Source of the DNA: Escherichia phage C6
Strand: one strand, 5' to 3'
Sequence record: MW679410.1
DNA: 64,000 bases
The notes beneath the pieces are model-generated. The model made no database searches, was not told the origin of the DNA, and saw nothing but the letters and a program-made list of their open reading frames with translations. The translations under genes and the position numbers were made by a program. Shown here one piece after another: positions 5,945-32,638 of the stretch; within the stretch, counting starts at the first letter, position 1, and every line of letters starts with the position of its first letter.

Positions 5945-6198
5945 TGGAAGATTTAATCGAAGCTATTAAATCAAACGACCTCGTAGCAGTTCGTAAAGCA
6001 GCAGCCCCGCTTATCGAATCTCGAGTAGCCGCTTTGATTGAAGCCCGTAAAGCAGAAATTGCTCGCTCCGTTATGATTGAAGGCGAAGAAGCTGACGAAG
6101 ATGACGAAGACGAAGATGACAAAAAATCCGATAAAGCAGATAAGAAAGACAAAAAAGAATCTGACGATGCGGATGATGACGACGAGGACGATGAATAA
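5944..6198 (+). CDS. 67: Prohead core protein gp67
   Basis: 84 aa with [29 protein letters not shown] and an acidic tail; position between 20 and 68 as in T4. Confidence 0.85.
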
Positions 6199-6626
6199 TG
6201 TTCCTTATCCCTGATGATTACGAATTAACTCTAGAAAGCGTAGAGGCCAAAATTCCAGAAGCACAGGGACGTTTTGCTGCTCTTTCTGAAGCGCTAGAGA
6301 AAAGCGATATAAATAATCTTGTAGAGAACATGATTGCTGAAGGCGATATCGAATGTGCTATCGCTCTTGGTTCTTTAAATGAATCAATGGCTCTTAACGA
6401 ATTTATCGTTAAACACGTTTCCTCTAAAGGTGTGCTTACTCGTACTAAAGATATTAAAACCCGTCAACGTAACGCATTCCAAACGACCGGGTTATCTAAA
6501 GCAAAGCGTCGTCAGATTGCTCGTAAAGCATCTAAAACCAAACGTGCTAATCCATCTACTCAAGTACGTGCCGAACGTAAGCGTAAGAAAGCCCGTTCTA
6601 AACGTAAAGCTTTTGGACTTAACTAA
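6198..6626 (+). CDS. 68: Prohead core protein gp68
   Basis: 142 aa, basic C-terminus; position and size as T4 gp68; ATGA-type stop-start overlaps on both sides. Confidence 0.8.
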
Positions 6627-7261
6627 TGAAACCTGAATTGCTCATCGAACATTGGGGACAACCAGGTGAAATTATCGATGGGGTTCCTATGTTGGAATCT
6701 CATGATGGAAAAAATTCTGGGCTTGCTCCCGGCCTTTATATAGAAGGCATTTTCATGCAAGCAGAGGTAGTTAACCGTAATAAACGCCTTTACCCAAAAC
6801 CTATTTTGGAAAAAGCCGTTGCCGATTATATGGCGGAACAGGTTGCTACTAAACAAGCTTTAGGAGAATTAAACCACCCACCTCGTGCTAACGTTGACCC
6901 TATGCAAGCCGCTATTATTATTGAAGATATGTGGTGGAAAGGTAATGATGTTTATGGACGTGCACGTATCATCGAAGGTGACCATGGCCCAGGTGATAAA
7001 CTAGCTGCAAATATCCGAGCAGGTTGGGTTCCTGGTGTTAGTTCTCGTGGTCTTGGTTCTTTAACCGAAACCAACAAAGGATATAAGCGTGTAAACGAAG
7101 GTTATAAATTAACCGTCGGTGTTGATGCAGTATGGGGACCATCTGCTCCTGATGCTTATGTAACTCCAAAGCAAATTACAGAATCACAAACGGTAGAAAC
7201 CGATACCAGTGCCGATGACGCCTTTATGGCTCTCGCAGAGGCCATGAAAAAAGCGTTATAA
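6626..7261 (+). CDS. 21: Prohead core scaffold protein and protease gp21
   Basis: 211 aa; LIEHWGQPGEIIDGVPMLESHDGK...GELNHPPRANVDPMQAAIIIEDMWWKGNDVYGRARIIEGDHGPGDKLAANIRAGW matches T4 gp21. Confidence 0.95.
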   Translation: MKPELLIEHWGQPGEIIDGVPMLESHDGKNSGLAPGLYIEGIFMQAEVVNRNKRLYPKPILEKAVADYMAEQVATKQALGELNHPPRANVDPMQAAIIIEDMWWKGNDVYGRARIIEGDHGPGDKLAANIRAGWVPGVSSRGLGSLTETNKGYKRVNEGYKLTVGVDAVWGPSAPDAYVTPKQITESQTVETDTSADDAFMALAEAMKKAL

Positions 7262-7291
7262 ATATTATTATCTAAACAACAGGACTACAAA

Positions 7292-8107
7292 ATGCTTAAA
7301 GAACAACTGATCGCCGAAGCACAGAATATTGATGCTTCCGTTGCTCTTGACAGTATTTTCGAATCAGTTAATATTTCTCCGGAAGCAAAAGAAACTTTCG
7401 GCACTGTATTCGAAGCTACCGTCAAGCAACACGCCGTGAAACTGGCTGAATCTCACATCGCTAAAATCGCTGAAAAAGCGGAAGAAGAAGTCGAGAAAAA
7501 TAAAGAAGAAGCTGAAGAAAAAGCCGATAAGAAAATCCAAGAAGCTGCCGGTCGTTTCCTTGACCACGTTGCTAAAGAATGGATGGCTGAAAACCAGCTG
7601 GCTGTTGATAAAGGTATTAAAGCCGAACTGTTCGAATCCATGTTGATGGGTATGAAAGAACTGTTTGTTGAACACAATGTGGTTGTTCCAGAAGAAGCAG
7701 TAGATGTTGTTGCTGAAATGGAAGAAGAGCTCCAAGAGCAGAAAGATGAAACCGCTCGTCTGTTCGAAGAAGTTGGTAAGCGCGATGCGTATATTAATTA
7801 CGTACAGCGTGAAGTTGCTGTTACGGAAGCAACTAAAGACCTGACTGAATCTCAAAAAGAAAAAGTTAGTTCTCTGGTAGAAGGCATGGATTATTCCGAT
7901 GCATTCGGTAAAAAAATTGGCGCTATTGTTGAAATGGTTAAAGGTCAGTCCGACGTTGAAAACCCAATCACCGAAGCCGCTATAAATAAAAATGTAGACG
8001 ATGCTGCGGCACTGAATTACATTTCAGAAGCAGTTGAAGAAAAAGGCGCTAAGCCTACCCTGTCCTTCGCGGACCTGTCTGCAATCGCAGCATCACGAAT
8101 TTCTTAA
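7292..8107 (+). CDS. 22: Prohead core scaffold protein gp22
   Basis: 271 aa; MLKEQLIAEAQNIDASVALDSIFESVNISPEAK matches T4 gp22; acidic coiled-coil-like composition. Confidence 0.93.
   Translation: MLKEQLIAEAQNIDASVALDSIFESVNISPEAKETFGTVFEATVKQHAVKLAESHIAKIAEKAEEEVEKNKEEAEEKADKKIQEAAGRFLDHVAKEWMAENQLAVDKGIKAELFESMLMGMKELFVEHNVVVPEEAVDVVAEMEEELQEQKDETARLFEEVGKRDAYINYVQREVAVTEATKDLTESQKEKVSSLVEGMDYSDAFGKKIGAIVEMVKGQSDVENPITEAAINKNVDDAAALNYISEAVEEKGAKPTLSFADLSAIAASRIS
7981..7988 (+). promoter_or_regulatory. Late promoter box TATAAATA inside gene 22, upstream of gene 23
   Basis: Exact TATAAATA about 140 nt before the gene 23 ATG. Confidence 0.5.
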
Positions 8108-8128
8108 TTTAATAAGGTTATACAACAC

Positions 8129-9688
8129 ATGAAAAAGAATGCATTAGTTCAAAAATGGTCCGCTCTGCTGGAAAACGAAGCCCTTCCTGAAATCGTGGGT
8201 GCTTCTAAACAAGCTATCATCGCTAAAATTTTCGAAAATCAGGAACAAGACATCCTGACTGCCCCGGAATACCGTGATGAAAAAATCTCCGAAGCATTTG
8301 GTTCTTTCCTGACCGAAGCTGAAATTGGTGGTGACCACGGTTATGATGCTACCAATATCGCAGCTGGCCAGACTTCTGGTGCTGTAACTCAGATTGGGCC
8401 GGCAGTAATGGGTATGGTTCGTCGTGCTATTCCTCATCTGATTGCTTTTGATATTTGTGGTGTTCAGCCTCTGAATAACCCTACCGGCCAGGTATTTGCC
8501 CTGCGCGCAGTTTATGGTAAAGACCCTATTGCTGCTGGCGCTAAAGAAGCTTTCCATCCGATGTATGCTCCGAACGCTATGTTCTCTGGTCAGGGCGCTG
8601 CTCAGACTTTTGAAGCACTGGCTGCAAGCAAAGTTCTGGAAGTTGGTAAAATTTATTCCCACTTCTTCGAAGCTACCGGTTCTGCACACTTCCAGGCTGT
8701 TGAAGCTGTAACCGTTGATGCAGGCGCTACTGATGCCGCTAAACTGGATGCTGCTGTTACCGCTTTGATTGAAGCTGGTCAGTTGGCTGAATTGGCTGAA
8801 GGTATGGCTACTTCTATCGCTGAACTTCAGGAAGGTTTTAACGGTTCCCAGGATAACCCGTGGAACGAAATGGGCTTCCGTATCGACAAACAAGTTATCG
8901 AAGCTAAATCCCGTCAGCTGAAAGCAAGCTACTCTATCGAACTGGCACAGGACCTTCGTGCAGTACACGGTATGGATGCAGATGCTGAACTGTCCGGTAT
9001 CCTTGCTACCGAAATTATGCTCGAAATCAACCGTGAAGTTATCGATTGGATTAACTACTCTGCACAGGTTGGTAAATCTGGTATGACCAACACCGTTGGC
9101 GCTAAAGCTGGTGTGTTTGACTTCCAGGACCCGATTGATATCCGTGGTGCTCGTTGGGCCGGTGAGAGCTTTAAAGCCCTTCTGTTCCAGATTGATAAAG
9201 AAGCAGCCGAAATCGCTCGTCAGACCGGTCGTGGTGCTGGTAACTTCATCATCGCTTCCCGTAACGTAGTTAACGTACTGGCTGCAGTTGATACTTCTGT
9301 AAGTTATGCAGCTCAAGGTCTGGGTCAAGGTTTCAACGTTGACACAACCAAAGCAGTATTTGCCGGTGTTCTTGGTGGTAAATATCGCGTTTACATCGAC
9401 CAGTATGCACGTTCCGATTACTTCACCATCGGTTATAAAGGCGCTAACGAAATGGACGCAGGTATCTACTATGCTCCGTACGTTGCACTGACCCCGCTGC
9501 GTGGTTCCGATCCGAAGAACTTCCAACCGGTAATGGGCTTCAAAACTCGTTACGGTATCGGTATCAACCCGTTTGCTGACCCGTCTGCACAGGCTCCTAC
9601 CAAACGTATTCAGAGCGGTATGCCTGACATCGTTAACAGCCTTGGTCTGAATGGTTACTTCCGTCGCGTATATGTTAAAGGTATCTAA
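8129..9688 (+). CDS. 23: Major capsid protein gp23
   Basis: 519 aa; long colinear match to T4 gp23 (EAEIGGDHGYDATNIAAGQTSGAVTQIGPAVMGMVRRAIP...GINPFA...YFRRVYVKGI). Confidence 0.97.
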   Translation: MKKNALVQKWSALLENEALPEIVGASKQAIIAKIFENQEQDILTAPEYRDEKISEAFGSFLTEAEIGGDHGYDATNIAAGQTSGAVTQIGPAVMGMVRRAIPHLIAFDICGVQPLNNPTGQVFALRAVYGKDPIAAGAKEAFHPMYAPNAMFSGQGAAQTFEALAASKVLEVGKIYSHFFEATGSAHFQAVEAVTVDAGATDAAKLDAAVTALIEAGQLAELAEGMATSIAELQEGFNGSQDNPWNEMGFRIDKQVIEAKSRQLKASYSIELAQDLRAVHGMDADAELSGILATEIMLEINREVIDWINYSAQVGKSGMTNTVGAKAGVFDFQDPIDIRGARWAGESFKALLFQIDKEAAEIARQTGRGAGNFIIASRNVVNVLAAVDTSVSYAAQGLGQGFNVDTTKAVFAGVLGGKYRVYIDQYARSDYFTIGYKGANEMDAGIYYAPYVALTPLRGSDPKNFQPVMGFKTRYGIGINPFADPSAQAPTKRIQSGMPDIVNSLGLNGYFRRVYVKGI

Positions 9689-9704
9689 GATATAACCTTA
9701 TTAT

Positions 9705-9735
9705 GGGAGACTTCGGTCTCCCATTCTTGTTTCTG
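9705..9735. terminator. Rho-independent terminator after gene 23
   Basis: GGGAGAC-TTCG-GTCTCCC hairpin followed by a T-rich tract (ATTCTTGTTTCT). Confidence 0.8.
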
Positions 9736-9737
9736 TA

Positions 9738-10004
9738 CTATGCAATCTTAACTCGACGATTGATGATATCACGGAAGTCAATACGATTTTCTTGGATTTT
9801 CAGCCAGTTACCAGATTTGTCTTTGGTATGGGTAGAGTATTCACCGTTCCACCAGAAGTCAGTTTCATAAGCTAGGGCTTCGTATTTCTTAACCAATGCA
9901 TTAACTGCATTACCGTTAGGATTGGTACCAAATTTTTCTACCAGAGCTTTGATGTCTTTGTCAAGGTTAGAAAGTGTAGTACGGATAAAGTTTAATTTGT
10001 TCAT
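9738..10004 (-). CDS. Hypothetical early protein, 88 aa, at the position occupied by segD in T4
   Basis: Minus-strand ORF between late genes 23 and 24; start taken at the second Met (10004) because GAGGAG lies 7 nt upstream; own early-type promoter at 10034-10063; not GIY-YIG-like. Confidence 0.6.
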   Translation of the reverse strand: MNKLNFIRTTLSNLDKDIKALVEKFGTNPNGNAVNALVKKYEALAYETDFWWNGEYSTHTKDKSGNWLKIQENRIDFRDIINRRVKIA

Positions 10005-10033
10005 TTTTAATCTCCTCATGTTTTGATAGGTCT

Positions 10034-10063
10034 ATAGTAACACGACGCTTTTTGTGTGTAAAC
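10034..10063 (-). promoter_or_regulatory. Early-type sigma70 promoter for the 88-aa ORF
   Basis: Minus strand GTTTAC (-35), 18-nt spacer, TACTAT (-10) with TG two bases upstream. Confidence 0.55.
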
Positions 10064-10069
10064 CACTTT

Positions 10070-10077
10070 TATAAATA
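10070..10077 (+). promoter_or_regulatory. Late promoter box TATAAATA upstream of gene 24
   Basis: Exact TATAAATA about 30 nt before the gene 24 ATG. Confidence 0.6.
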
Positions 10078-10106
10078 AAATTATATTCTCAATAAGGAAA
10101 ATAGCA

Positions 10107-11387
10107 ATGGCTAAAATTAACGACCTTTTAAAAGAGTCGACCACTACTTCGAGTTCTTCGATTGGTCGTCCAAATTTAGTAGCTTTAACCAGAGCTACGA
10201 CCAAACTGATTTATACCGACCTTGTAGCTCAGCAGCGTACTAACCAACCTTTGGCTGCTCTATATGGTATCAAATATCTTACAGAAAAAAACGAATTATC
10301 TTTCCAGACAGGTGCTACTTATTCTGGTGCAGTATCCGCTAAAGACCGTGCCTCTATCCCAGTTTTCACTGCAGGTGCTGTTTACGCTAAAGATGATTTG
10401 TTCCAATTTGAAAACGTAGTTTATAAAGCTTTGGTAGCAACACCATTTGCAGGTGCTACTGGCGATGAATACGAACAACTTCAAGAAGCTATTGTTAAGT
10501 TGACTATTCGTATTATGTCCGAAGCCGCACTGACTGAGCGTTTTGAAGGCCTCCAGGATGTAGATGTTTCTGAAGCCAAATTCGTCGTTAATAAATGGAA
10601 CGCTCCAGTTAAATCCCGTAAGTTGAAGAGTACTGTTACTGTAGAACTGGCTCAAGACCTCGAAGCAAATGGTTTCGATGCCCCTAATTTCTTGGAAGAC
10701 CTCCTGGCTACTGAAATGGCTGATGAAATCAACAAAGATATTCTTCAGTCCCTGGTTACGGTTTCCAAGCGTTATAAAGTTGAAGGTTTGTGTGATGACG
10801 GCTTAATTGACCTGAGTTATGCTAACTCACCGGAAGCTTCTCGCAAGCTTTATGAAATAGTTTGTGAAATGGTTTCTCATATCCAGCGCGCAACCTCTTA
10901 TACGGCAACTTATGTAGTAGCGAGTACTCGCGTAGCCGCTGTTCTGGCTGGTTCTGGCTGGTTAAGACATACCCCACAGAACGACAAATATCTTTCTGCA
11001 AATGCATACGGATTCCTGGAAAATGGTTTGCCTGTGTATTGTGATACCAACACGCCAATTGATTATGTTACTGTAGGTGTTAAAGAGGAATTTGGTGGGA
11101 AAGAAGCAGTAGGTTCTTTGTTCTATGCGCCGTATACAGAAGGCCTTGATTTGGCTGACCCTGAACATGTGGGTACATTTAAAGTGGTCGTTGACCCTGA
11201 AAGCCTGCAACCATCTATTGCATTAATGGTTCGTTATGCACTGGCTGCTAACCCTTATACGGTTACTTCCGATGATAAACAAGCCCGTATTATTGATGCG
11301 ACTAATATGGATTTGATGGCGGGACGTTCTGATATGTCCGTATTGCTTGGTGTGAAACTTCCTAAAGTTTTGACTGAATTAAACTAA
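10107..11387 (+). CDS. 24: Capsid vertex protein gp24
   Basis: 426 aa; MAKINDLLKESTTTSSSSIGRPNLVALTRATTKLIY and ELAQDLEANGFDAPNFLEDLLATEMADEINKDILQSL match T4 gp24. Confidence 0.95.
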   Translation: MAKINDLLKESTTTSSSSIGRPNLVALTRATTKLIYTDLVAQQRTNQPLAALYGIKYLTEKNELSFQTGATYSGAVSAKDRASIPVFTAGAVYAKDDLFQFENVVYKALVATPFAGATGDEYEQLQEAIVKLTIRIMSEAALTERFEGLQDVDVSEAKFVVNKWNAPVKSRKLKSTVTVELAQDLEANGFDAPNFLEDLLATEMADEINKDILQSLVTVSKRYKVEGLCDDGLIDLSYANSPEASRKLYEIVCEMVSHIQRATSYTATYVVASTRVAAVLAGSGWLRHTPQNDKYLSANAYGFLENGLPVYCDTNTPIDYVTVGVKEEFGGKEAVGSLFYAPYTEGLDLADPEHVGTFKVVVDPESLQPSIALMVRYALAANPYTVTSDDKQARIIDATNMDLMAGRSDMSVLLGVKLPKVLTELN

Positions 11388-11394
11388 CAAAAAA

Positions 11395-11414
11395 GGGACC
11401 TTACGGTCCCTTTG
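11395..11414. terminator. Bidirectional terminator between gene 24 and rnlB
   Basis: GGGACC-TTAC-GGTCCC hairpin flanked by A-run on one side and T-rich tract on the other. Confidence 0.75.
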
Positions 11415-11419
11415 TCGTC

Positions 11420-12424
11420 TTACGACACTAATTCAATCCATACTGCTCGTAGGGTATCTTTTACACACTCAACGAGCTGCTTTTTAACTTCAACAGGATT
11501 TTCTGCATCGGTTAATTCTAATTCTTCACGGGCGGCTTCTTCTAAGATATCTTGGACTGTCAAGCCCATTACCTTTCCGAAATCCTTTTTAGATACTTCG
11601 CCAATCTTACTGATGACATTATTAATGCGGTTAACAGTCACATAATCGGTGAATTGCCACATCAAATCCATATCGTCTTGGGATAAAACTACCACAGTCT
11701 TGATAGGCTTATCGGACTTTTTCTTCTCGCTGAATTTAGAGTTCTTACATTTAATCGCTACGCGATTTCCGTTTGGAAGCCAGGTAGGAATATCAGGTTT
11801 AAGTACAAAGCCTTCGGCTGTAAATACTTTACCTTCTACCTTAGGAATAAAGTCTGTCGAGTTTGCAATAGTTAGGCCAGCGTTATCCACTGCAAAATTA
11901 TAATCAGGAATAACTGAATCAAAGTCGTTAGGTAATTTAATAAGGTCTTCAAAGCTACCGGTGGCCAGACATGGAGCTACCTTAAACTTATGGATAATAC
12001 AGAAGGCTTCCATCAATGTATCGGTTAGAACAGATTCTGAACCATCTTCCTTAGTAACTCGGATATCGAACACATAAAAGTCTTTATCGCCGTAGTCCAC
12101 ATTCTTCTGGATACCTGTCCCAGCGAATTCGCCATAAATCTGGTACGACTGATAATTAATCGATTCAATTAGATGTTGAACAGATTTAATAGAATCAGCA
12201 TAGTTCTTAAGTACAATTTCATAACCATAGAAATCTTCAGCAGGGAGGATAGGGCCAGTGCGCTTGGCGCATGTGACTGCGTCACGTTCTATGATTAAAC
12301 TAAAGTTGGTTCCATGAATCTTCTCACGTGCCACCCATTCACCACTGGTCAAACCATTAGTACGGAGTTTTTCGATAAACTTACTGTTGTAGTGGTTTTC
12401 GAGACTGCTATATTTCTTGAACAT
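11420..12424 (-). CDS. rnlB: RNA ligase 2 (RnlB)
   Basis: 334 aa, same length as T4 Rnl2; [20 protein letters not shown]...[17 protein letters not shown] with the ligase KxHGxN motif. Confidence 0.93.
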
Positions 12425-22196: not shown

Positions 22197-23285
22197 ATGA
22201 AAGCAAAAGAACTTGACTTTGATGTAGCCTCCTTGTTTAAAGGAGGTTCAAAGACCTCCGCCGGGCAGTCTAAAGCTAAACCGGCTCAAACTACGGTAAC
22301 GGCCCAATACCCGGCAGAAAGGGCCTCTGGCAATGACACCTCTACAGATATGGTGTTAAGCGATTTATATAAAAACGGCTTACTTTTTACAGCGTATAAT
22401 TTTAGCTCTCGTGTATCACCTGATTTGCGTAATGACCGATCAAGTCAAATGACTAAAAAGTTTTCAAAAGCCTCTAGTAAACTTACCGGTAATACCGGAG
22501 GATTCAGCGCGGTTAAAAACTTGTTCAGTAATAACTCTAAAGGAGTTAAATTTGACAACCAAGCTTTGGCAAATATTTTACTCCCACGTTCTAAATCTGA
22601 CGTAGATTCGGTATCGCATAAATTTAATGATGTCGGTGAATCATTAATTACTAAAGGTGGTGGTACTGCTACAGGTATTTTAAGTAACATTGCAAGTACT
22701 GCTGTATTTGGTGCATTGGAATCTGTAACTAACGGCGTAATGGCTGATTCAGGTGAACAGATATACACCACTGCCCGTAGTATGTACGCCGGCCCAGATA
22801 ACCGTACTAAGGTATTCACTTGGGAAATGACTCCACGAAACGCTCAAGACCTTATCCAGATTATTAAAATATACGAAATCTTTAATTACTATTCTTATGG
22901 TGAAACCGGCAACTCAGCCTTCGCTGGTGAATTAAAAGAGAAGATTGATACCTGGTATCGTTCTACGTTTAAAAAAGAAGCTATTGACAAGTTTGACGGT
23001 AAGCTATTAGGGGAAAGTATTACAAGCTTCCTTTCTAATGTTATTGTGGTAAGTAACCCGACCATTTGGTATATCCGAAACTTTGGCGATAGCAGTTCAT
23101 ATGATGGTCGTGAAGATATTTTTGGTCCATGCCAAATCCAAAGTATACGATTTGATAAAACCCCTGATGGTCATTTTAACGGATTGGCTATTGCTCCTAA
23201 CTTACCATCTACATTTAGTTTAGAAGTTACTTTCCGTGAAATCATTACTTTAAACCGTGGCTCACTTTATACGGAAGGATTCTAA
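22197..23285 (+). CDS. 48: Baseplate tail-tube cap gp48
   Basis: 362 aa; position and size match T4 gp48; EKTSAGQS-like N-terminal motif. Confidence 0.85.
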   Translation: MKAKELDFDVASLFKGGSKTSAGQSKAKPAQTTVTAQYPAERASGNDTSTDMVLSDLYKNGLLFTAYNFSSRVSPDLRNDRSSQMTKKFSKASSKLTGNTGGFSAVKNLFSNNSKGVKFDNQALANILLPRSKSDVDSVSHKFNDVGESLITKGGGTATGILSNIASTAVFGALESVTNGVMADSGEQIYTTARSMYAGPDNRTKVFTWEMTPRNAQDLIQIIKIYEIFNYYSYGETGNSAFAGELKEKIDTWYRSTFKKEAIDKFDGKLLGESITSFLSNVIVVSNPTIWYIRNFGDSSSYDGREDIFGPCQIQSIRFDKTPDGHFNGLAIAPNLPSTFSLEVTFREIITLNRGSLYTEGF

Positions 23286-24238
23286 TGTATACTTTACAAG
23301 AATTTCAGAATCAGGCAATTAATATTGACCTACAAAGGAATAACCTGTTTAGTGTAGTATTTGCTACAGTTCCTTCTTCTAAATCTCAAGCGCTCCTCGA
23401 CCAGTTCGGTGGAGCTTTATTTAACAATATCCCATTGAATACCGATTTGTTTGGTATTACACAAGGAGAGTTGACCCAAGGTGTTACGACATTAGTGACA
23501 GCGGGCACTCAGAAGTTGATTCGTAAGTCAGGTATAAGTAAATATCTGATTGGAGCTATGTCATCCAGGGTTGTGCAGAGCTTACTAGGAGAGTTTGAAG
23601 TAGGTACATATCTGATGGATTTTTTCAATATGGCTTATCCTACGGCAGGTCTTTTAGTCCACGCCGTTAAAATCCCGGATAATACTTTGAACTATGAAAT
23701 GGATTTGAACCACAACTCGCCTAATATCAAAATTACCGGAAGAGAATATTCTCCTCTGGTATTAAGCTTCCGTATGGATTCTGAAGCTGCCAACTACCGT
23801 GCTTTTAATGACTGGGTCAATAGTGTTCAAGACCCAATTACACAATTAAGAGCATTACCTGAGGATGTTGAAGCTGACATTCAAGTCAACCTTCATTCTC
23901 GTAATGGATTACCCCATACAGTAGTAATGCTTAATGGGTGTGTTCCTGTTAGTGTTTCGTCACCGGAATTATCCTACGACGGTGATAACCAAATTGCTTC
24001 GTTTGATGTTACATTTGCTTATAGAAGTGTGCAGACGGGTGCAGTCGGTAAACAGGCGGCTTATGAATGGCTGGAAGATAAAGTCCTTAAAGGAGTGGCG
24101 GGCATAAGTGAGAGTAATTCACTGAGTTCTTCAGTAGCTAAATTAAGCCGACTTTCAGGAGCTTCTAGTGGATTAACAGGATTGGTTAATACATTTGGTG
24201 GGCGTGCTATTAATAGTGGAATATCGAGGTTGCTATAA
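23285..24238 (+). CDS. 54: Baseplate tail-tube initiator gp54
   Basis: 317 aa; ATGA overlap with gene 48; position and size match T4 gp54. Confidence 0.85.
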   Translation: MYTLQEFQNQAINIDLQRNNLFSVVFATVPSSKSQALLDQFGGALFNNIPLNTDLFGITQGELTQGVTTLVTAGTQKLIRKSGISKYLIGAMSSRVVQSLLGEFEVGTYLMDFFNMAYPTAGLLVHAVKIPDNTLNYEMDLNHNSPNIKITGREYSPLVLSFRMDSEAANYRAFNDWVNSVQDPITQLRALPEDVEADIQVNLHSRNGLPHTVVMLNGCVPVSVSSPELSYDGDNQIASFDVTFAYRSVQTGAVGKQAAYEWLEDKVLKGVAGISESNSLSSSVAKLSRLSGASSGLTGLVNTFGGRAINSGISRLL

Positions 24239-24244
24239 CAAAAA

Positions 24245-24268
24245 AGGAGAGCGTACGCTCTCCTTTAG
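24245..24268. terminator. Bidirectional terminator after gene 54
   Basis: GGAGAGCG-TA-CGCTCTCC perfect palindrome flanked by an A-run and a T-run. Confidence 0.75.
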
Positions 24269-24271: not shown

Positions 24272-24562
24272 TTATTTACGGAACGAAATGAAACCTGCTG
24301 TGGTCATTAGCGGTTGCTTTTTAACAAACACCGTAACTGAAATAGGAGCTTCAGATTCGAGTTGTCCTGTCACTACACCGTTAAAAATGTTTTCGGTTTG
24401 TTCTGGATGAGAAAAATTCTCAACAGGTCGGATATCAAACTGTTTGTCTTCACCGAAAACTCGACGTAATTCATTACCCACTGCACTGTCAAACTCTTCA
24501 GAAGCAGGGATAACGTTTTCAACTACCAGTTCTTGACCATTAAAACGGAATGCAGATTTCAT
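24272..24562 (-). CDS. Hypothetical early protein, 96 aa (alt.-3 position)
   Basis: ORF with GAGGAG RBS and an early-type promoter at 24591-24620; between gene 54 terminator and the alt array. Confidence 0.6.
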   Translation of the reverse strand: MKSAFRFNGQELVVENVIPASEEFDSAVGNELRRVFGEDKQFDIRPVENFSHPEQTENIFNGVVTGQLESEAPISVTVFVKKQPLMTTAGFISFRK

Positions 24563-24590: not shown

Positions 24591-24620
24591 ATAGTACCAC
24601 ATCCTTGTGGTGTTGTAAAC
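24591..24620 (-). promoter_or_regulatory. Early-type promoter for the 96-aa ORF
   Basis: Minus strand GTTTACA, 18-nt spacer containing the inverted repeat CCACAAGGATGTGG, TACTAT; leader ...CATGAGGAGAACATTATG. Confidence 0.55.
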
Positions 24621-26743
24621 TACATTTTGAATTTATTTGGCAGAGCAGAGATATCCAAAGATGCAGCAAGGATTTCCATAGCTTCGTTGCTTTCAGAAAC
24701 GGATTCATTAACCAAGAATTGACTGAATCCATGCATCAGGCGAACTTCACCAGTTTCCATCAAATGGTCGCCATCGTAAACAGATTCGCTGAGCTCTGAA
24801 GGAGGTGTTACTGTAGCTTCCATAAGATATTTGTGAGATACCCTATCATTCATAGCAAAAGCCGCTACTTTATCAACCTTCAACAATAATCCACGCGGAA
24901 GGATAATTTCTGCTTCTTCGGCATATTCTGTAAGGTCACCAGGAGCGATAACTTTAACTGCTTCAGCACCTCGAATAACCATACCAATTTCAGCAATTCT
25001 ATCCGCAGGACCTTCAGGTGCAATTGGATTACCAAACTCGTCTTCTTCCCATTCTACCTCTTCGTCATCGACTTCACCCACATCAGATGAACTACCACTA
25101 GCCAATTTAAACAACTCATCAGCGGAGGATAAAGAACCTTCACCACCAACAAAAACGGCTTGGTTGTCGAGGGCCATATAATTTTTACCAAATTCACCAA
25201 AGATGTTAGGCTTTAATGAGGCTGACACAAAGTTCTTAAAGTAAAATGTTTTGTTATCGATATTATGACGCAGAATTTTGTATGGCAAATCCTGACCACG
25301 ATACAAAATAGTACCCTTAGGAAGTTTAATACCCTTAGTAAATGCTGAGTCTAAATCCTTAATCAATTTAATAGCCGTTGTATTGTTTTCGGATTCAGGT
25401 TTACCTAAAAGGAACAAGTTCATAGGAGCATATTCAGCTGCGCAATATTCAATAATAGCATTGCTTTCGTCTTTGGTTAGGTCCTTAGGTTTAATGAGCT
25501 CACCTGAATAAGCATATGCATCACTAATAGAATCGTTAATTAGTTTATAAACGGCTTCCATAGCGAAAGCAATTCGAGAGGCCTTTTCTGAAGGGGAGCC
25601 TTTAAAACGGGTACTCAGGTTATTAACAATTTTCTTAATAATATCCAGACTATTGGTTGTATTGATTTGCGAAAGACCGCTTAAAAGTCTATCGACTTCT
25701 GTATTAAAAAATGCCATATTATTAGAGTAAATTTCAAACCCTTGTTTATCTCTATTAGCATAATTTAGTTTAAATTTACTATCAGTCATTAAAGCGTGCG
25801 TGAGAGCAATGGTGTATCTAAAGTTGGCAAGGTCCTCGCTCTTAGATTTAAACTGAGAAGCCTGGCGCATTTTGGTAATAGCACCTTTTTTAAAGTTCTG
25901 ACTAATCTGTTCAATACCTTCATTCTCAGGGCCTTCAGCCGTGTGAACCGGTACAGAAGCTTCAAACTCGTTATAAACCTGCAATTCTTTAGGGGACAAA
26001 GTTTCAGGCTCAGCAGTAGAATACTGCGCGGCTGCTGCCATACGACGCGAAATCTTAGTACGAGTAATGACAGCCTTATCAGTACGTTTTTCTTCAACTT
26101 GTGCAATAGATGCCGCTACGGCTTCGACCTTACTTACGGCCTGGCCGGTTTTCTTAGAAACATACACTTCGCCAACTTTAGACTCAACTTTAGTATAAAG
26201 ATCGGCATTAATTTCAGGCATACCCTTGATATCTTCAATATTAGCCCCGCGACGTACTAAAAGAACGTAGGTATGTTTTCCGCTGAATTGGAACATGTCG
26301 TCAACAACTTTAAACTTACCACCGGTACGGGCCATAGCCAAACGAGCTAATACGCGCTGAACGGTAGGGCCTTTACCTTTCATTTTCTTAGTAGGGAAAC
26401 GGAATAAAACCGCGTCCATTTTAAGTTTGTTTATTTGTTCATATATGGTATCGAAAATGGTGTTCAGTGTACCGAGTGGATCGGTACCCAAACCACCCTT
26501 GAGTTCTGCCGGAGCGCCTTTAGCAGATAAACTCATTAAGATAACATGGACGTACTTATCGCCCGCCTTAACCATCTTAATAGCGTCGCCTTCAGACGCA
26601 TAAGATACCATACGTGCTACTAAATTGTCATTACCAGGAGCATGTACCGCAAAAATCTGCGGTACGCCTGAGCCAGGTTTAAGATTTGTTACTGGGTAAT
26701 TTTTTTTATCACTTTTATCAAAAACTTCGTTTAAATTTTCCAT
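24620..26743 (-). CDS. alt: Alt-type ADP-ribosyltransferase paralog A (third in the array)
   Basis: 707 aa; N-terminal MENLNEVFD (LxE-type motif) and conserved approx 230-aa N-domain shared with the two upstream paralogs; ART-like R/S-x-S/E-x-E elements (LYRGQ, FVSASL, EEAEIILPRG); divergent central module. Confidence 0.85.
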   Translation of the reverse strand: MENLNEVFDKSDKKNYPVTNLKPGSGVPQIFAVHAPGNDNLVARMVSYASEGDAIKMVKAGDKYVHVILMSLSAKGAPAELKGGLGTDPLGTLNTIFDTIYEQINKLKMDAVLFRFPTKKMKGKGPTVQRVLARLAMARTGGKFKVVDDMFQFSGKHTYVLLVRRGANIEDIKGMPEINADLYTKVESKVGEVYVSKKTGQAVSKVEAVAASIAQVEEKRTDKAVITRTKISRRMAAAAQYSTAEPETLSPKELQVYNEFEASVPVHTAEGPENEGIEQISQNFKKGAITKMRQASQFKSKSEDLANFRYTIALTHALMTDSKFKLNYANRDKQGFEIYSNNMAFFNTEVDRLLSGLSQINTTNSLDIIKKIVNNLSTRFKGSPSEKASRIAFAMEAVYKLINDSISDAYAYSGELIKPKDLTKDESNAIIEYCAAEYAPMNLFLLGKPESENNTTAIKLIKDLDSAFTKGIKLPKGTILYRGQDLPYKILRHNIDNKTFYFKNFVSASLKPNIFGEFGKNYMALDNQAVFVGGEGSLSSADELFKLASGSSSDVGEVDDEEVEWEEDEFGNPIAPEGPADRIAEIGMVIRGAEAVKVIAPGDLTEYAEEAEIILPRGLLLKVDKVAAFAMNDRVSHKYLMEATVTPPSELSESVYDGDHLMETGEVRLMHGFSQFLVNESVSESNEAMEILAASLDISALPNKFKM

Positions 26744-26746
26744 TAT

Positions 26747-28792
26747 TTACCCTTGGGTGAATTTTTCTGGGATTTCGTCAAAATTAATACATGAAGCCAA
26801 AAGAGGCATTATATCCACCTTGGTCGATTTGACAAATGAATCAAAAGACACAGGGTTGTCGGTCTCTGTTTCTACGCCTTGGTAAACAACCAATTCGCCG
26901 GTTTCCATCAATGCATCACCATCATAGATAACCGCATTTTCTGCTAGTTGGTCTGTGGTCTGGATATCAGCTTCCAATAATTTGGTGTTGTAGTTTCCTT
27001 TATATGAGGCATCTGTAATTTTAGTAATCTTAACAGTAGTTCCACGTGGAAGAATAACCTCTTGTTCTGTTGGAGAACCTGACAATTCACCGGGCACAAT
27101 TACGTTAATAGAGTCTGCACCGGAAATTTTCCAACCGATGTTCATCATTGTATTTTCGGAACTCGTCAGCATACTTGGAAGAACAATTTCATTATCGCCT
27201 TGGAAAGATGTCCCAACGCGATAGTCCTGATGAACTGCGGCCATTGCGACGTTTGATACCCAGCCGCCAAAGATAATCGGCTTAAGGGACGTTGATACAT
27301 AGTTCCTGAAATAAAACAATTTTGAGTGTTTGATTTTATCAAAAGTGTTAACATTTAAATATTGACCACGCCAAAGTGTAATATCAGGTGGCAATTTATG
27401 GCCAATTTCAAATGCCGCATCCATATCATTAATTACTTCAATTACGCGATAACTATCAATAAATTCTGCATCCTCTTCATAATAATTACCCAACAAATAA
27501 TTATTAACATCGGTATAATATTGGCCGCAATAAGAAGAAATAGCCTCACGCTGCTCATACTCAAATCGATTATCGCTATAACTGGCTGTAAAATGCATAA
27601 CACTTTCTGACGCTTCATTAGCAAAATCGGTAACAGCAGCACTTATACGTTGAGCATACTCTTGTTCCCAAAGCTCTGCCGCATATTCGGCCGCATCCAT
27701 ATTAGGAGGAGCCTCATTCATTTTTCTTTCGATAAATGCAGCTTTGCGAAGGTTAAGAACCTCTGCACATGATTCGGCAAAAATCTGCATCTGCTTCATA
27801 CTGCCGACAGGAGCACGTTTAAGTTCACGATGCATACGGTTAAAAATTGGGTCAGAGTCTTCGACTCGAATTTCTTCTTTCCAAACACCGTTTGCTCGCA
27901 TAGCCATATCTGCCGCGCGCATACGCTCCATAGTATTCGTTTCAGAAGGTTGAATAAAAATTTCTAGTTCTTCATAATCGTCGATAAGTTCCGCTGTTGC
28001 TGGGGCACTAAATTTTGATGCCTCTGCATCAATCTCATTCCAACCTTCCGGAACTTCATCTCGAGGAGAATACTGGGCTGCGGCTACAGCACGCCTAGAA
28101 ATCTTGGTAGTAGTAATAACGGCCTTATCCGTACGTTTTTCTTCGACTGCCGCTATACTAGCAGATAGTGCTTCTATTTTGGTTACCGATTGGCCTGTTT
28201 TCTTGGATACATAAACCTCACCAACTTTAGACTCAACCTTAGTGTAAAGGTCTGCATCAATTTCAGGCATACCTTTTATGTCCTCAATATTAGCTTGTTT
28301 ACGAACCAGTAAAACGTATGTATGTTTGCCTGTAAATTGATACATATCATCGACAACTTTAAACTTGCCGCCAGTACGAGCCATCGCCAAACGTGCCAAT
28401 ACACGTTGAACAGTAGGACCCTTACCTTTCATTTTCTTGGTAGGGAACCGGAAAAGAACTGCATCCATACGAAGAGCTTTAACTTGTTCGTATACAGTAT
28501 CGAAAATGGTGTTCAGTGTACCAAGTGGGTCAGAACCTAACCCGCCTTTCAACTCGGCTGGGGTACCCTTAGCAGACAAACTCATCAAAATAACATGAAC
28601 ATATTTGTCGCCCGGCTTAACCATTTTAATAGCGTCTCCTTGAGACGCATAAGATACCATACGAGCAACCAGATTATCATTACCTGGTGCTTGGATAGAG
28701 AAAATCTGTGGAATACCGGAACCCGGTTTAAGATTTGTTACTGGATAGTTTTTAGCGGAATCACTATCAAAAACCTCATTTAAATTTTCCAT
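26747..28792 (-). CDS. alt: Alt-type ADP-ribosyltransferase paralog B (second in the array)
   Basis: 681 aa; N-terminal 230 aa nearly identical to paralog A; LWRGQ, YVSTSL, EQEVILPRG motifs; unique central module; C-terminus ...PLLASCINFDEIPEKFTQG. Confidence 0.85.
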   Translation of the reverse strand: MENLNEVFDSDSAKNYPVTNLKPGSGIPQIFSIQAPGNDNLVARMVSYASQGDAIKMVKPGDKYVHVILMSLSAKGTPAELKGGLGSDPLGTLNTIFDTVYEQVKALRMDAVLFRFPTKKMKGKGPTVQRVLARLAMARTGGKFKVVDDMYQFTGKHTYVLLVRKQANIEDIKGMPEIDADLYTKVESKVGEVYVSKKTGQSVTKIEALSASIAAVEEKRTDKAVITTTKISRRAVAAAQYSPRDEVPEGWNEIDAEASKFSAPATAELIDDYEELEIFIQPSETNTMERMRAADMAMRANGVWKEEIRVEDSDPIFNRMHRELKRAPVGSMKQMQIFAESCAEVLNLRKAAFIERKMNEAPPNMDAAEYAAELWEQEYAQRISAAVTDFANEASESVMHFTASYSDNRFEYEQREAISSYCGQYYTDVNNYLLGNYYEEDAEFIDSYRVIEVINDMDAAFEIGHKLPPDITLWRGQYLNVNTFDKIKHSKLFYFRNYVSTSLKPIIFGGWVSNVAMAAVHQDYRVGTSFQGDNEIVLPSMLTSSENTMMNIGWKISGADSINVIVPGELSGSPTEQEVILPRGTTVKITKITDASYKGNYNTKLLEADIQTTDQLAENAVIYDGDALMETGELVVYQGVETETDNPVSFDSFVKSTKVDIMPLLASCINFDEIPEKFTQG

Positions 28793-28795
28793 TAT

Positions 28796-30880
28796 TTACC
28801 CTTGGATGAATTTTTCTGGGATGTCATAGAGGTCTATGCATGAAGCCAAAAGAGGCAGTACATCAAACCGTGTAGATTTAACAAATGAATCAAAAGATAC
28901 AGGGCTTTCGGAAGTATCGAAGTCATCTTGATATACGACCAACTCGCCGGTTTCCATTAGTACGTCACCATCATATACCACAGATTCTTGAAGCTCATCT
29001 GTTGTCATAACTTCAGCTTGGATGAGTTTTGTATTACTAGATGTTGTTCCATCATTATTAGAAGCATCTGTTATTTTATTAACTTTGACCATTAATCCAC
29101 GCGGTAGAATAACTTCGGCTTCAGTTGCTATTCCGAGATTTCCTGGATATACTACATTAACTTTATGAGCCCCATCAATAGCCCATCCTATTTGAACTTT
29201 AACGTAATCAGGATTTTCCTTATACGCCCTTATTTCATTAGGGTTAATAGTTATTCCTTCTTCATTTTTATCGACTGTCAATTCATTACGAACTTCCGGT
29301 TCTAAAAGACCGATACCAGCGTGTGTAACACCAAATCGTCCAAAAATGATAGGGGTTAAAGAAGTAGATACAAAATTTCTGAAATAGAACACTTTATTTT
29401 TAACTAGTGCTTCGTATATAGGAGCAGTCATACTCTGTGCACGATAAACTGTAATGCCTTCTGGTATACGGTCACCATTTTCAAAAGCAGAATCCAAATT
29501 ATTAACTGCAGATTCGATATCTTTTTCGCTCATAACCTCATAGTTCTGAGGATTATAACGTCCTAAAAGAAGATTATTTATGTCTGTATATCCTGAACCA
29601 CAATATTCTCTGATGCCGCGCTTTTGTGATGGGGTATATTTAGAGCCCTCACGAGCAATAGTAATATCGACCATAATACCACCACCCACACCAGCAAAAC
29701 TATATACACGTTTTTTAATGAACTTGGTCTTGGCGGCTTTCCACTTCGCATCGGTCAATTCATTCCAGAGGTCGTCAGGTTGGCCTTTACGAGTTTTGTT
29801 ATGCCGGGCCAGCCATTCACCTTTGTATTCTTCGAAAACGGTATTAATAGCAGAGGCATATTTTTCTAGAGCTTTAACAGATGTCAAAGGTTCGTTTTTG
29901 ATGGCCGTAAGAATTTTATCTTTAATTTTCTCTTGGATTTCACCTATACCGTGAAGAGGAAACATTTTATAATCGTAATGCAATTCTTCAGCAGTGCCTT
30001 CAGCCACTATATTAGCAACCTTATTTTTAGCCGCAGGAGAATTGTTATTAGTAACCATTTCCTGAGCCTCAGGGATTAATGGAACTGTTGCTGGTTTATT
30101 AAAATCCGCTGCAGTAGCTTCATATTTCTTAAACAATTCACTTTCATTACGATAAGATTCCAATGATTGGCTTGCTGCAATAGCACGTCGCGAAATCTTA
30201 GTCTTGGTTATAACCATTTTATCAGTGCGACGTTCTTCAACCTTAGCAATACTGCCGGCAATAGCAGTTTCTTTAGTAACCTGCACACCTTCTTTTTTGG
30301 AAATATAAACTTCACCGACATCAGAATCTACCTTAGTGTATAATTCGGAATTAATTCCTGGCATACCTTTGATATCTTCGATATCAGCTTGTTTACGAAC
30401 TACTAAGATGTAAGTATGTTTACCGGTAAATTGGTACATAGCCGGAACTACTTTAAAACGTCCACCAGTTTTCTGTGCTACCAAACGTTGGATAATCCGT
30501 TGGACAATAGGTCCTTGTCCTTTCATTTTCTTGGTAGGAAAACGGAACATCACGGCATCCATACGAAGCTTTTTAACTTGGTCATAAACCACATCAAAAA
30601 TAGTATTAATCGCATCTACGGGAGTAGGGCCAAGGCCACCCTTAAGTTCGGCCGGAGTACCTTTAGCTGAAAGGCTCATAAGGATAACGTGGGCATATTT
30701 ATCACCCATTTTAACTTGTTTAATAGCATCACCTTCAGAAGCGTAGGATACCATACGCGCGACCAATTGGGATTCAACGTCTCCAATTTTCCAAATCTGG
30801 GGTACTTTAAGTTTAGGGTTCAAGTTTACTGTAGGCAGAGTGCCTTCGGACTCAAACACTTCATTTAATTGTTCGGTCAT
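28796..30880 (-). CDS. alt: Alt-type ADP-ribosyltransferase paralog C (first in the array)
   Basis: 694 aa; same architecture (MTEQLNEVFE..., VYRAQS, FVSTSL, EAEVILPRG, C-terminal ...PLLASCIDLYDIPEKFIQG); N-domain more diverged than A/B. Confidence 0.85.
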   Translation of the reverse strand: MTEQLNEVFESEGTLPTVNLNPKLKVPQIWKIGDVESQLVARMVSYASEGDAIKQVKMGDKYAHVILMSLSAKGTPAELKGGLGPTPVDAINTIFDVVYDQVKKLRMDAVMFRFPTKKMKGQGPIVQRIIQRLVAQKTGGRFKVVPAMYQFTGKHTYILVVRKQADIEDIKGMPGINSELYTKVDSDVGEVYISKKEGVQVTKETAIAGSIAKVEERRTDKMVITKTKISRRAIAASQSLESYRNESELFKKYEATAADFNKPATVPLIPEAQEMVTNNNSPAAKNKVANIVAEGTAEELHYDYKMFPLHGIGEIQEKIKDKILTAIKNEPLTSVKALEKYASAINTVFEEYKGEWLARHNKTRKGQPDDLWNELTDAKWKAAKTKFIKKRVYSFAGVGGGIMVDITIAREGSKYTPSQKRGIREYCGSGYTDINNLLLGRYNPQNYEVMSEKDIESAVNNLDSAFENGDRIPEGITVYRAQSMTAPIYEALVKNKVFYFRNFVSTSLTPIIFGRFGVTHAGIGLLEPEVRNELTVDKNEEGITINPNEIRAYKENPDYVKVQIGWAIDGAHKVNVVYPGNLGIATEAEVILPRGLMVKVNKITDASNNDGTTSSNTKLIQAEVMTTDELQESVVYDGDVLMETGELVVYQDDFDTSESPVSFDSFVKSTRFDVLPLLASCIDLYDIPEKFIQG

Positions 30881-30902
30881 AATAATTCCTCTTTAATAAC
30901 CT

Positions 30903-30932
30903 TATTTATGCCAGAAAAGGCCCGAAGGCCTT
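30903..30932 (-). promoter_or_regulatory. Hairpin (AAGGCC-CGAA-GGCCTT) plus variant late-promoter-like box upstream of the alt array
   Basis: Palindromic GC hairpin followed on the minus strand by UUUUCUGG, then cATAAATA (one mismatch to TATAAATA) about 20 nt before the first alt ATG. Confidence 0.4.
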
Positions 30933-31114: not shown

Positions 31115-32638
31115 TTATAACCCAGTTTGAGACCAATCACCGAATACATCTTCAAATGTATCAGCTTCTGTTTTATCGAAACGCCAACCTTTAATAATTG
31201 GAAGGAAAATACCTACGGTATCAGTACGTCCTTTAGAATGAACCCAACCATTACATTCACAGTCGGCAATACGGCCAATCAATTTACCTTCACGAGCTTG
31301 TTTCATAAGAAGTTCACGGTCTAAATCAGGACGGTCTTCCAATGGAATCAATACCTTTTTACCTGATTTATCTTTCTTATGGGTAGTATCTTTAAAGCCT
31401 GAACCACAGTCACTTGTAATTCGACGACAACGTGATACCAACTCGACACCACCTAGTTTGTTAGGGTCCTTCGAGTGTTCATAATAACCTACCACTTCTA
31501 AAGCAATATCAATTACTTCTTTGAACTTGATAAGATTCTTAGAACGGCGGTTTTCCCAGTAGGAGTCCATGTTCTTAAGGATAATACCTTCCAGGCCCTG
31601 GTCGACATATTTCTTATAAACGACTTTAGCTTCTTCAAGATTATTAACCCACTGGTTTTCGATAGCTTCAACACGCGTTGTACCATGCAATACGACATTA
31701 TGAGCAACCATAAGTTCTAAGGCTGTAAAGCGTACATCATACTTATCGCCTTTAATTTTACCTTCGGAATATACGACATCCAATGGGACATAATCCCACG
31801 CCTGTAATACCATACCAGCGGCTTCGGTCGGAGTAATAGTTCCTTGAAGAGCCTTGTTAGCCAAGCCGTTTGACGTGGAACGATCGGCGACAGTTTGGAA
31901 TTCCTTAGCCTTACTTAATTCAGGAAGTTCCTCATCAAACATACTAAACAAATCATTAGATGCTTTAGGTTCTACCTTAGGAGTATGGTAAACTAATTCG
32001 CCGTCAATCATAACACCATTAGGATGGCGTTGTCGAGCTTCTTCGGTCATGGTCATTAATTCAGCAGCCAAAAGATTAAGCCCTTGATATTCGTTACCAC
32101 CACGAGTAAGGAATGTCACACCATCGTTACGAACTTCAGCAAAACAACGAGCGCCATCAGCTTTTAATTGGGCAAACGCAGGCCATTTAATATTTTTCTT
32201 AATCAAAGCTTCATCATAAGAACTAGCCAACATCTGCGGTTGTTCAGGGATTAAACCTTTCCAAACCTTGTTAGCAATAGAAATTGATGCACCACATTCA
32301 AGGTCACGCATCATTACACGACGTAATACCTCGGCATCTTGTCCCTTAGCATCAGCAATGATTTGAGCCAGTTCTTCAATAGCTGCATTACCCGTAATCT
32401 TACGTGTGGCTAATGTGAATTCAGCGAAATCAAGAAGGTCTTCAAGAGTAATCATACCAAAGGATTGAGACGTAAATCCAGGTTCCGGCCACTTTTTAAT
32501 GCCATAGTTCAAACGACGAGTATAAGCCATACGATAAACACGTTTCAGAAGCTCATTGTCCTTTTCACGAGCAATAATAGCTTCTTTAGCTTTAGTAGAA
32601 TCAATAGCAGCAATTTCGTTTAAAATATCTAAAATCAT
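31115..32638 (-). CDS. 30: ATP-dependent DNA ligase gp30
   Basis: 507 aa; MILDILNEIAAIDSTKAKEAIIAREKDNELLKRVY...QLKADGARCFAEV (adenylation KxDG motif)...LEGIILKN matches T4 DNA ligase. Confidence 0.95.
   Translation of the reverse strand: MILDILNEIAAIDSTKAKEAIIAREKDNELLKRVYRMAYTRRLNYGIKKWPEPGFTSQSFGMITLEDLLDFAEFTLATRKITGNAAIEELAQIIADAKGQDAEVLRRVMMRDLECGASISIANKVWKGLIPEQPQMLASSYDEALIKKNIKWPAFAQLKADGARCFAEVRNDGVTFLTRGGNEYQGLNLLAAELMTMTEEARQRHPNGVMIDGELVYHTPKVEPKASNDLFSMFDEELPELSKAKEFQTVADRSTSNGLANKALQGTITPTEAAGMVLQAWDYVPLDVVYSEGKIKGDKYDVRFTALELMVAHNVVLHGTTRVEAIENQWVNNLEEAKVVYKKYVDQGLEGIILKNMDSYWENRRSKNLIKFKEVIDIALEVVGYYEHSKDPNKLGGVELVSRCRRITSDCGSGFKDTTHKKDKSGKKVLIPLEDRPDLDRELLMKQAREGKLIGRIADCECNGWVHSKGRTDTVGIFLPIIKGWRFDKTEADTFEDVFGDWSQTGL

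Follow-up and report, generated by a model that had tools for sequence, protein, structure and literature searches.

The Alt protein of phage T4 is an ADP-ribosyltransferase (ART) that is packed in the head and injected with the DNA. We analyzed a 64,000-nt stretch of Escherichia phage C6 (MW679410.1; hereafter the window) in which three alt-like genes lie in tandem, and in which a preliminary description made from the sequence alone had pointed to direct DNA repeats across the junctions between them. The window is that of a Dhakavirus, a JS98/QL01-like T4-type phage (megablast, 96–97% identity to fDHCT2, QL01 and MX01), and the records of fDHCT2, QL01 and MX01 already annotate three Alt-like genes. 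We consider it likely that the alt repeats represent conserved ends of three long-standing tandem paralogs, and that recombination at these ends deletes copies and swaps modules.

The array consists of three adjacent minus-strand open reading frames (ORFs) in the order altC, altB, altA, with a 3-nt spacer at each junction (Table 1). Each product matches PHROG 802 over its full length (E=1e-249 to 1e-262) and exceeds the 23.4-bit cutoff of PF03496 (ADPrib_exo_Tox), scoring 63.3 bits for altA, 75.0 for altB and 124.3 for altC (E=4.9e-36 for the last). The R, S-T-S and E-x-E motifs are found as YRAQ479, VSTSL504 and EAEVILPRG587 in altC, as WRGQ474, VSTSL499 and EQEVILPRG576 in altB, and as YRGQ481, VSASL506 and EAEIILPRG610 in altA. 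All three are predicted to be full-length Alt-like ADP-ribosyltransferases with the catalytic motifs of the R-S-E clade intact. At amino acid (aa) 506, altA has S-A-S where altB and altC have S-T-S, and compared with these two it carries an acidic insertion (…SSDVGEVDDEEVEWEEDEFG…) within the ART domain at ~aa 540–575 (~25019–25126). A Pfam scan of the Alt proteins returned PF03496 alone and detected no MuF domain, and a PDB sequence search with altA gave no match.

Each paralog is built from a conserved N-terminal domain of ~243 aa, a hypervariable middle and the ART domain, and the non-terminal genes additionally share a conserved C-terminal tail. Over the first ~243 residues, altA and altB are 87% identical at the protein level, while either is 66–70% identical to altC (64–66% at the nucleotide level). 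Identity between paralogs falls to 12–26% in the middle region and is 34–40% in the ART domain. The last ~56 residues are 68% identical in the B/C pair only.

Extent and age of the direct repeat

Both junctions lie within a gapless direct repeat of 912 nt (26015–26926 and 28064–28975) with an offset of 2049 nt and an identity of 77.1%. As the preliminary description had proposed, the repeated unit joins the 3′ end of one gene, the junction and the 5′ end of the next at a constant 2049-nt period, although its extent is larger than had been noted. The reported similarity between the 5′ regions of altA and altB was likewise borne out (77.4% identity over 729 nt of coding sequence), and the spacer together with the altB/altC 3′ tails (183 nt) is 76.0% identical. 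The near-identical junction motif that had been quoted, CCATTATTTACCCTTGG(G/A)TGAATTTTTCTGGGAT, is present exactly twice, at 26740–26773 and 28789–28822, 1–3 nt from the coordinates first given. The third, weaker copy of the N-domain coding repeat, in altC, is 64–72% identical depending on the segment and the partner (65–72% for the segments returned by the repeat search). All four repeat families from that search have a spacing of 2049 nt. In a check of 24600–30900 equivalent to a dot-plot, every exact repeat of at least 14 nt fell on one of three diagonals, 2049, 2094 (B/C) and 4143 (A/C), and the longest exact runs were 27 nt (26730–26756, at the junction) and 26 nt (26448–26473). The 30-nt windows flanking the repeat are only ~25–35% identical, so the similarity of the whole repeat far exceeds chance.

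The age of the repeat was judged against a null model in which synonymous codons were drawn from the phage's own codon usage on the protein alignment. The A/B heads are 77.4% identical at the nucleotide level compared to 73.7% expected (z=3.1), and the B/C tails 73.8% compared to 65.3% (z=3.3). At identical residues, altA and altB use the same codon at a frequency of 0.545 (0.456 expected), and the B/C tails at 0.68 (0.44 expected). Third-position identity is 52–54%, and synonymous sites are near saturation. The junction tract (26730–26773) contains one mismatch in 44 nt, with 43 matches in the best 45-nt window. Because the observed identity barely exceeds the protein-level prediction, the synonymous sites are nearly saturated and the junction tract is no outlier, we regard the alt repeats as old paralogy whose similarity is kept mostly by protein-level selection, with no fresh duplication of DNA. 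An old age is also backed by the orthologues of the altB cassette in Gaprivervirus, and by the same junction in T4, where the second copy has decayed.

These results divide the original interpretation. The preliminary description had read the repeats as those expected of unequal-crossover duplication, and had named as contrary evidence an identity no higher than protein conservation predicts together with a lack of extended identical tracts. The repeats and junctions stand, whereas a recent duplication nearly fails by that measure, with near-saturated synonymous sites, an identity barely above the protein-level expectation and no exact tract longer than 27 nt. The array may nonetheless have originated by unequal crossover. 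With its A-like head (87% aa) and C-like tail (68% aa), altB would fit an old A/C hybrid. A simple A/C hybrid is insufficient, since the middle and ART regions match neither neighbor (20–40% aa) and instead match Gaprivervirus altb.

Copy number, hybrid genes and cassette exchange in relatives

A tblastn census with the N domain yielded 1816 places in 1201 phage records. Among the best matches listed were ~36 distinct Dhakavirus genomes, ~15 with three copies and ~21 with two. With genes denoted by type, the arrangement C-B-A of the window is shared by fDHCT2, QL01, MX01, AnYang and LHE83, and KIT01 and UGJNEcP3 have C2-B-A. The array D-C-A* occurs in WG01, LQ5, ABTNLS3, E33, PSD2002 and PSD9; C-A* in IME08, JS10, CUA3, IME281 and IME341 (dhaeg is similar, with a diverged C-type first gene); and C2-A* in JS98 and vB_EcoM_005. 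Other, novel second genes are found in VR5 and Bp7. In Gaprivervirus, SP18 has two copies (Dg-Bg), and VR20, VR25, VR26 and vB_YenM_P8 have one (Bg). What the two-copy Dhakavirus arrays lack is altB and one spacer, exactly 2049 nt. Thus one-, two- and three-copy states all exist among related alt loci, and the earlier suggestion that copy number can change through the repeats agrees with what is found there: they have served as recombination substrates.

No array of more than three copies was found among the Dhakavirus genomes examined. Two candidates for arrays of four to five copies were rejected: LHE83 is really C-B-A with the record origin cutting through altA, and phage 04086 is really D-C-A with frameshifts. 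Both features inflated naive copy counts. In the 04086 record (OR842557; 177 kb, 148 features; array at 5012–11563 of the locus) the last alt gene is frameshifted and other annotations are fragmented, and it appears to be a low-quality assembly. Matches in an IMG/VR scan with altB were confined to the cultured isolates QL01, VR5/20/25/26, IME281/341, JS98 and vB_EcoM_005, without any new array from metagenomes. In vB_EcoM_005, the last alt gene (1120–3144 of its locus) has an in-frame deletion of 33 aa that leaves the ORF intact and corresponds to altA aa 609–641 (~24821–24919). The deletion removes the catalytic E-x-E (EEAEIILPRG) and with it, probably, the enzymatic activity of this copy.

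Arrays that lack altB end in a hybrid gene with a B-type 5′ part and an A-type 3′ part. Scored at the 109 sites fixed between A and B across genomes, the hybrids fall into at least five classes with a clean breakpoint within the repeat (crossover intervals 1–5, Table 1), plus a mosaic class. Four of the five intervals overlap or abut exact A/B runs of 17–26 nt in the window. In WG01, 50 B-state sites are followed by 59 A-state sites, and the gene differs by 0–1 mismatches per 60 nt from its nearest B and then from its nearest A. In maximum chi-square tests on the scored hybrids, none of 300 permutations exceeded the observed value. The polarity is B-5′/A-3′ at all clean breakpoints, which is the product expected from deleting the interval between two direct repeats. 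Additionally, the three-copy phages QL01 and UGJNEcP3 carry an altA with a B-type tip although altB is retained, indicating that conversion also occurs without loss of a copy.

Module swapping, which had also been suggested, finds support in sliding-window comparisons of the alt genes: variable effector cassettes are exchanged between conserved ends. Between altC and the C2 genes of KIT01 and JS98, identity is 82–98% over nt 1–720 (75% in one JS98 window) and 95–98% over the last ~200 nt, with 38–77% in the region between. As in a polymorphic effector cassette, identity falls at ~nt 720 and recovers at ~nt 1860. The reverse pattern is seen between altB and SP18 altb, where the head (37–63%; 49% for the N domain) and tail (55–58%) are diverged and the cassette (nt 721–1920; 26873–28072 in the window) is 58–95% identical in windows, with 60-nt windows up to 95%, and 80% overall. 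The middle region of altB, which has matches in only 44 phage records, shows ~81% nucleotide identity to its Gaprivervirus orthologues. Because gp48, gp54 and ligase of the window phage are only 69–72% identical to those of SP18, the 80% identity of the cassette points to a transfer of the altB effector cassette between genera after their divergence. The cassette boundaries (~nt 720–735 and ~nt 1860–1920) coincide with the repeat boundaries. Altogether, ~8 middle-plus-ART cassette types are found behind conserved N domains: A, B, C, C2, VR5 first, VR5 second, D and Bp7 second.

Junctions, putative expression signals and flanking genes

Among 24 inter-alt junctions compared, 22 are C/B-tail junctions, from 16 Dhakavirus arrays, and in these the junction block is nearly invariant. 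In the coding orientation it reads CCA GAA AAA TTC A(T/C)C CAA GGG TAA, followed by the spacer ATA and then ATG GAA AAT TTA AA. The codons CAA GGG place an AAGGG element within the 3′ end of the upstream gene, as in a translationally coupled pair, with the same distance to the ATG as for other genes of the window. GGG is the rarest glycine codon in the phage (5.3%), and it is used at the terminal position in 22 of 22 C/B-tail junctions. In SP18, AAGGG stands at an equal distance from the ATG but outside the coding sequence, and the differing tail of altA lacks the embedded element. These patterns suggest that the CAA GGG codons act as a Shine-Dalgarno (SD) sequence for the next gene, and that the three genes probably form an operon with translational-coupling cassettes at its junctions. 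In several relatives (fDHCT2, JS98 and UGJNEcP3) the spacer ATA (28793–28795 in the window) is ATG, which adds an in-frame upstream Met (MMENLNE...) abutting or overlapping the upstream stop and explains differences of 1 aa in annotated length.

The array proteins begin with M(T)E(N/Q)LNE/VF, compared to MELITE/LF in T4, and this N-terminal [L/I]-x-E would fit a prohead protease site. gpAlt is a prohead-core protein from which small N-terminal peptides are removed by the gp21 protease (PMC9958956). Known function, from head packaging and N-terminal processing to injection and ADP-ribosylation of host proteins, is confined to T4 Alt (PMC9958956).

Upstream of altC lie a GC hairpin, a late-promoter-like CATAAATA, the putative promoter of the array, and a strong SD. 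No terminator-like site was found at either alt-alt junction. As context, promoter and terminator matches in the scan were not enriched over shuffles (16 compared to 19.9, and 9 compared to 5.9). Inside the altB 3′ end, ~65 nt ahead of the altA start codon, lies a sigma-70-like site on the minus strand, TTGTCA-16 nt-TATAAT (11/12; 26808–26835). All seven altB genes examined keep its –10 element, with a variable –35, and the site is missing from the homologous tail of altC. This may be an internal altA promoter, or a match by chance, promoter-like matches not being enriched in the region. The stretch between the altA stop and alt.-3 has a promoter-like TTTACA-17 nt-TACTAT and a small hairpin, and a strong intrinsic-terminator-like hairpin follows alt.-3 (minus strand; sites at 24243–24266 and 24591–24619). 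The array has the T4-type context, flanked by DNA ligase/alt.1 on one side and alt.-3/gp54 on the other.

Table 1. Features of the alt array and its surroundings, in coordinates of the window.
Feature	Coordinates	Strand	Details
altC	28796–30880	-	694 aa; array gene 1; T4-Alt-like tail ending ...IPEKFIQG
altB	26747–28792	-	681 aa; middle gene; missing from about half of Dhakavirus genomes
altA	24620–26743	-	707 aa; last gene; differing tail ...LPNKFKM, without downstream coupling cassette
Direct repeat copy 1	26015–26926		last 183 nt of altB (stop included), 3-nt spacer, first 729 nt of altA
Direct repeat copy 2	28064–28975		last 183 nt of altC (stop included), 3-nt spacer, first 729 nt of altB
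Third, weaker copy of N-domain coding repeat	30158–30880		altC 5′ region; spacing 2094 from altB
Crossover interval 1	26670–26692	-	altA nt 52–74 (51/75); LQ5, ABTNLS3, QL01, UGJNEcP3; overlaps 20-nt exact A/B match 26676–26695
Crossover interval 2	26591–26617	-	altA nt 127–153 (126/154); E33, PSD9; contains 21-nt exact A/B match 26594–26614
Crossover interval 3	26538–26548	-	altA nt 196–206 (195/207), 11 nt; PSD2002
Crossover interval 4	26472–26476	-	altA nt 268–272 (267/273); IME281; abuts 26-nt exact match 26448–26473
Crossover interval 5	26361–26403	-	altA nt 341–383 (340/384); WG01; contains 17-nt exact match 26373–26389
Junction cassette altB to altA	26730–26773	-	...IPEKFTQG, stop TAA, spacer ATA, ATG GAA AAT TTA AA (MENLNE...)
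Junction cassette altC to altB	28779–28822	-	one mismatch in 44 nt to 26730–26773
SD-like AAGGG for altA	26750–26754	-	last two sense codons of altB (CAA GGG), 6 nt before ATG
SD-like AAGGG for altB	28799–28803	-	within final altC codons
Array upstream signals	30903–30932	-	GC hairpin 30917–30932; late-promoter-like CATAAATA 30903–30910; SD AAAGAGGAA; altC ATG
DNA ligase (gene 30)	31115–32638
alt.1-like ORF			PHROG 1976; array flank
alt.-3-like ORF	24272–24562		PHROG 1739; array flank
gp54	23285–24238

Origin of the pattern and comparison with known systems

Several explanations can be weighed against these data. Had the 2049-nt unit been copied lately at the DNA level, with the junction identity as a leftover, the constant 2049-nt period and the gapless 912-nt repeat would be expected, as would the A-like head and C-like tail of altB (an A/C crossover hybrid) and the slight nucleotide excess over the protein-level expectation (z ~3). 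Such a recent segmental duplication is nevertheless highly improbable, and is largely refuted by the codon-usage null and the triplet-shuffle results: the copies are only 77% identical with third positions at 52–54%, synonymous matching is near saturation, and the longest exact run of 27 nt is not significant. Moreover, the middle and ART regions of altB are unlike those of A or C (20–40% aa) and have 80%-identical orthologues in Gaprivervirus, and the junction architecture is common to T4. That the pattern stems from short-read assemblies in which repeats were collapsed or wrongly joined, or from annotation, is hardly credible. Some records are indeed poor, as the 04086 frameshifts and the extra LHE83 places at the record origin show, but at 77% identity the repeats differ too much for collapse, the architectures are found again and again in many isolates obtained independently by different groups and in different years (including JS98, JS10 and IME08), and all ORFs are intact.

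A further view holds that conservation acts purely at the protein level and that the DNA repeats are a passive by-product with no part in recombination or copy change. Nucleotide identity is almost as protein conservation predicts, and the window has no significant identical tracts, yet we find this view unlikely in the face of at least five clean B/A joints inside the repeat in close relatives, with the polarity of direct-repeat deletion, the conversion tips in three-copy arrays and the agreement of cassette with repeat boundaries. Concerted evolution, in which frequent gene conversion does more than protein selection to keep heads and junctions alike, has a better claim, although we doubt it as the leading cause. 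It would explain the B-type altA tips in QL01 and UGJNEcP3, the A-type patches in altB of fDHCT2, MX01, AnYang and UGJNEcP3 (nt ~311–327), the junction I/T codon shuffled between junction types (MX01, AnYang and LQ5) and the same-codon excess in the B/C tails (0.68 compared to 0.44). However, the A and B heads differ at 23% of sites, with 109 differences fixed across genomes, so homogenization must be patchy and rare relative to divergence, and the C head is just 64–66% identical to those of A and B.

Some observations also weigh against an old array whose conserved ends recombine. Against shuffles of the 912-nt repeat that preserved triplets, the junction did not stand out from the rest (best 45-nt window, P=0.13; longest run, P=0.20); the case for its function consequently rests on its invariance across phages, the rare GGG codon and the comparison with T4. 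The excess of nucleotide identity above the protein-level expectation is small, and the window alone carries no sign of recent exchange. The coupling of the genes and a packaging role for the N domain are drawn from sequence pattern and the T4 literature, and an AlphaFold2 model of the N domain from the three-paralog alignment (mean pLDDT 54.8) was too poor for use. The JS98-type last genes are mosaics with 10–29 "other" states, which may include older events and may partly reflect a third, older allele. Lastly, the hybrids could have come from co-infecting phages with different arrays instead of intragenomic deletion.

On balance we favor the old three-paralog array with recombining ends. Purifying selection on the N domain, which by analogy with T4 would serve in head packaging, probably helps to keep the repeat similar, and a junction acting as a translational-coupling cassette (AAGGG in the last codons, stop, 3-nt spacer, ATG) would also maintain similarity, with some contribution from occasional gene conversion between paralogs. 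The repeats, being direct and having exact runs of 17–27 nt, could be paired out of register by T4-type recombination machinery. T4 itself undergoes deletions and tandem amplifications by recombination at microhomologies as short as 6–10 bp (PMC9391042), so the alt repeats should be more than adequate substrates. Pairing out of register could then delete a precise 2049-nt unit (C-B-A to C-B/A hybrid), convert the 5′ end of altA to the B-type, or exchange whole effector cassettes between head and tail, within or between genera. The copy-number states, hybrid genes and cassette mosaics are seen directly in the genomes, and from them we infer the direction of each array event (deletion or transfer). 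These sequences show that the repeats have recombined repeatedly, with copies deleted and enzyme modules swapped.

A broader idea, which we put forward tentatively and with less than even confidence, is that the alt array serves specifically to diversify the host-takeover enzymes that the phage injects, with the N-domain and tail/junction regions as recombination linkers. If so, phages would gain, lose and exchange effector cassettes across genera and tune copy number to host defenses under headful limits, and the polar B/A hybrids would be the footprint of frequent, ongoing events instead of rare accidents. Alt enters with the phage DNA and reprograms the host as soon as infection begins. With one to three copies and ~8 cassettes among near-identical phages, the locus is plausibly a hotspot of an arms race. 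The hybrids also amount to a natural record of homeologous recombination in T4-type genomes, in which DNA of 77% identity crossed over at exact runs of ~11–26 nt. For Dhakavirus phage-therapy candidates, it means that alt content is unstable and varies between otherwise near-identical isolates.

Tandem alt paralogs themselves are already annotated and published. GenBank records list altA/altB in JS10, IME08 and SP18 and three Alt-like genes in QL01, MX01 and WG01; alt.-1/alt.-2 and a full-length alt duplicate have been listed as paralogous duplications (Nolan et al. 2006, PMC1524935), and alt has been described as duplicated in JS98 and Bp7 and clustered in ZZ1 (Jin et al. 2014, PMC4177764). 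A literature search with limited access found no description of the B/A hybrid series or the cassette exchanges, which are incremental within a known kind. The basic picture is unchanged: both the tandem alt paralogs and, in T4, copy change driven by recombination are established already.

The closest parallel is the alt locus of T4, which occupies the same position between gene 30/alt.1 and alt.-3/gene 54 in the same tandem head-to-tail order. At its alt to alt.-1 junction (4566–7003 of the T4 locus) are the same 3-nt spacer, an SD within a ...KF(V/I/T)QG stop tail and an [L/I]-x-E start, reading AAG TTC GTT CAA GGA TAA, then ATC, then ATG GAA CTT (CAAGGATAA-ATC-ATG). The RefSeq record NC_000866 takes alt.-1/alt.-2 for an old duplicate of the initial part of alt, and the pair is a decayed second paralog. 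In T4 this second copy is only a decayed N-terminal fragment, whereas the three copies in the window are full length with catalytic motifs.

The T4 internal-protein (IP) locus and MuF-fused effectors likewise combine a conserved, capsid-targeting N-terminal module with injected C-terminal effectors that vary highly among close relatives (PMC3012670; PMC9503650). Delivery with the DNA, in T4, and an N-terminal peptide that the gp21 protease removes (PMC9958956) are further points in common. The conserved module of the alt genes differs in being ~243 aa long in place of a ~10-aa targeting peptide, and the three paralogs are putatively packaged proteins. A third comparison is with recombination-driven amplification and deletion in T4, as in tifA amplification (Srikant et al. 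2022, PMC9391042) and the rII and gene 16–18 work that this study cites. There, too, copy number changes by recombination between short direct homologies in a genome of T4 type, and headful packaging makes extra copies costly. The tifA events arose in the laboratory at microhomologies of 6–10 bp, while those at alt, read from natural isolates, would have used 912-nt homeologous repeats with exact runs of 17–27 nt.

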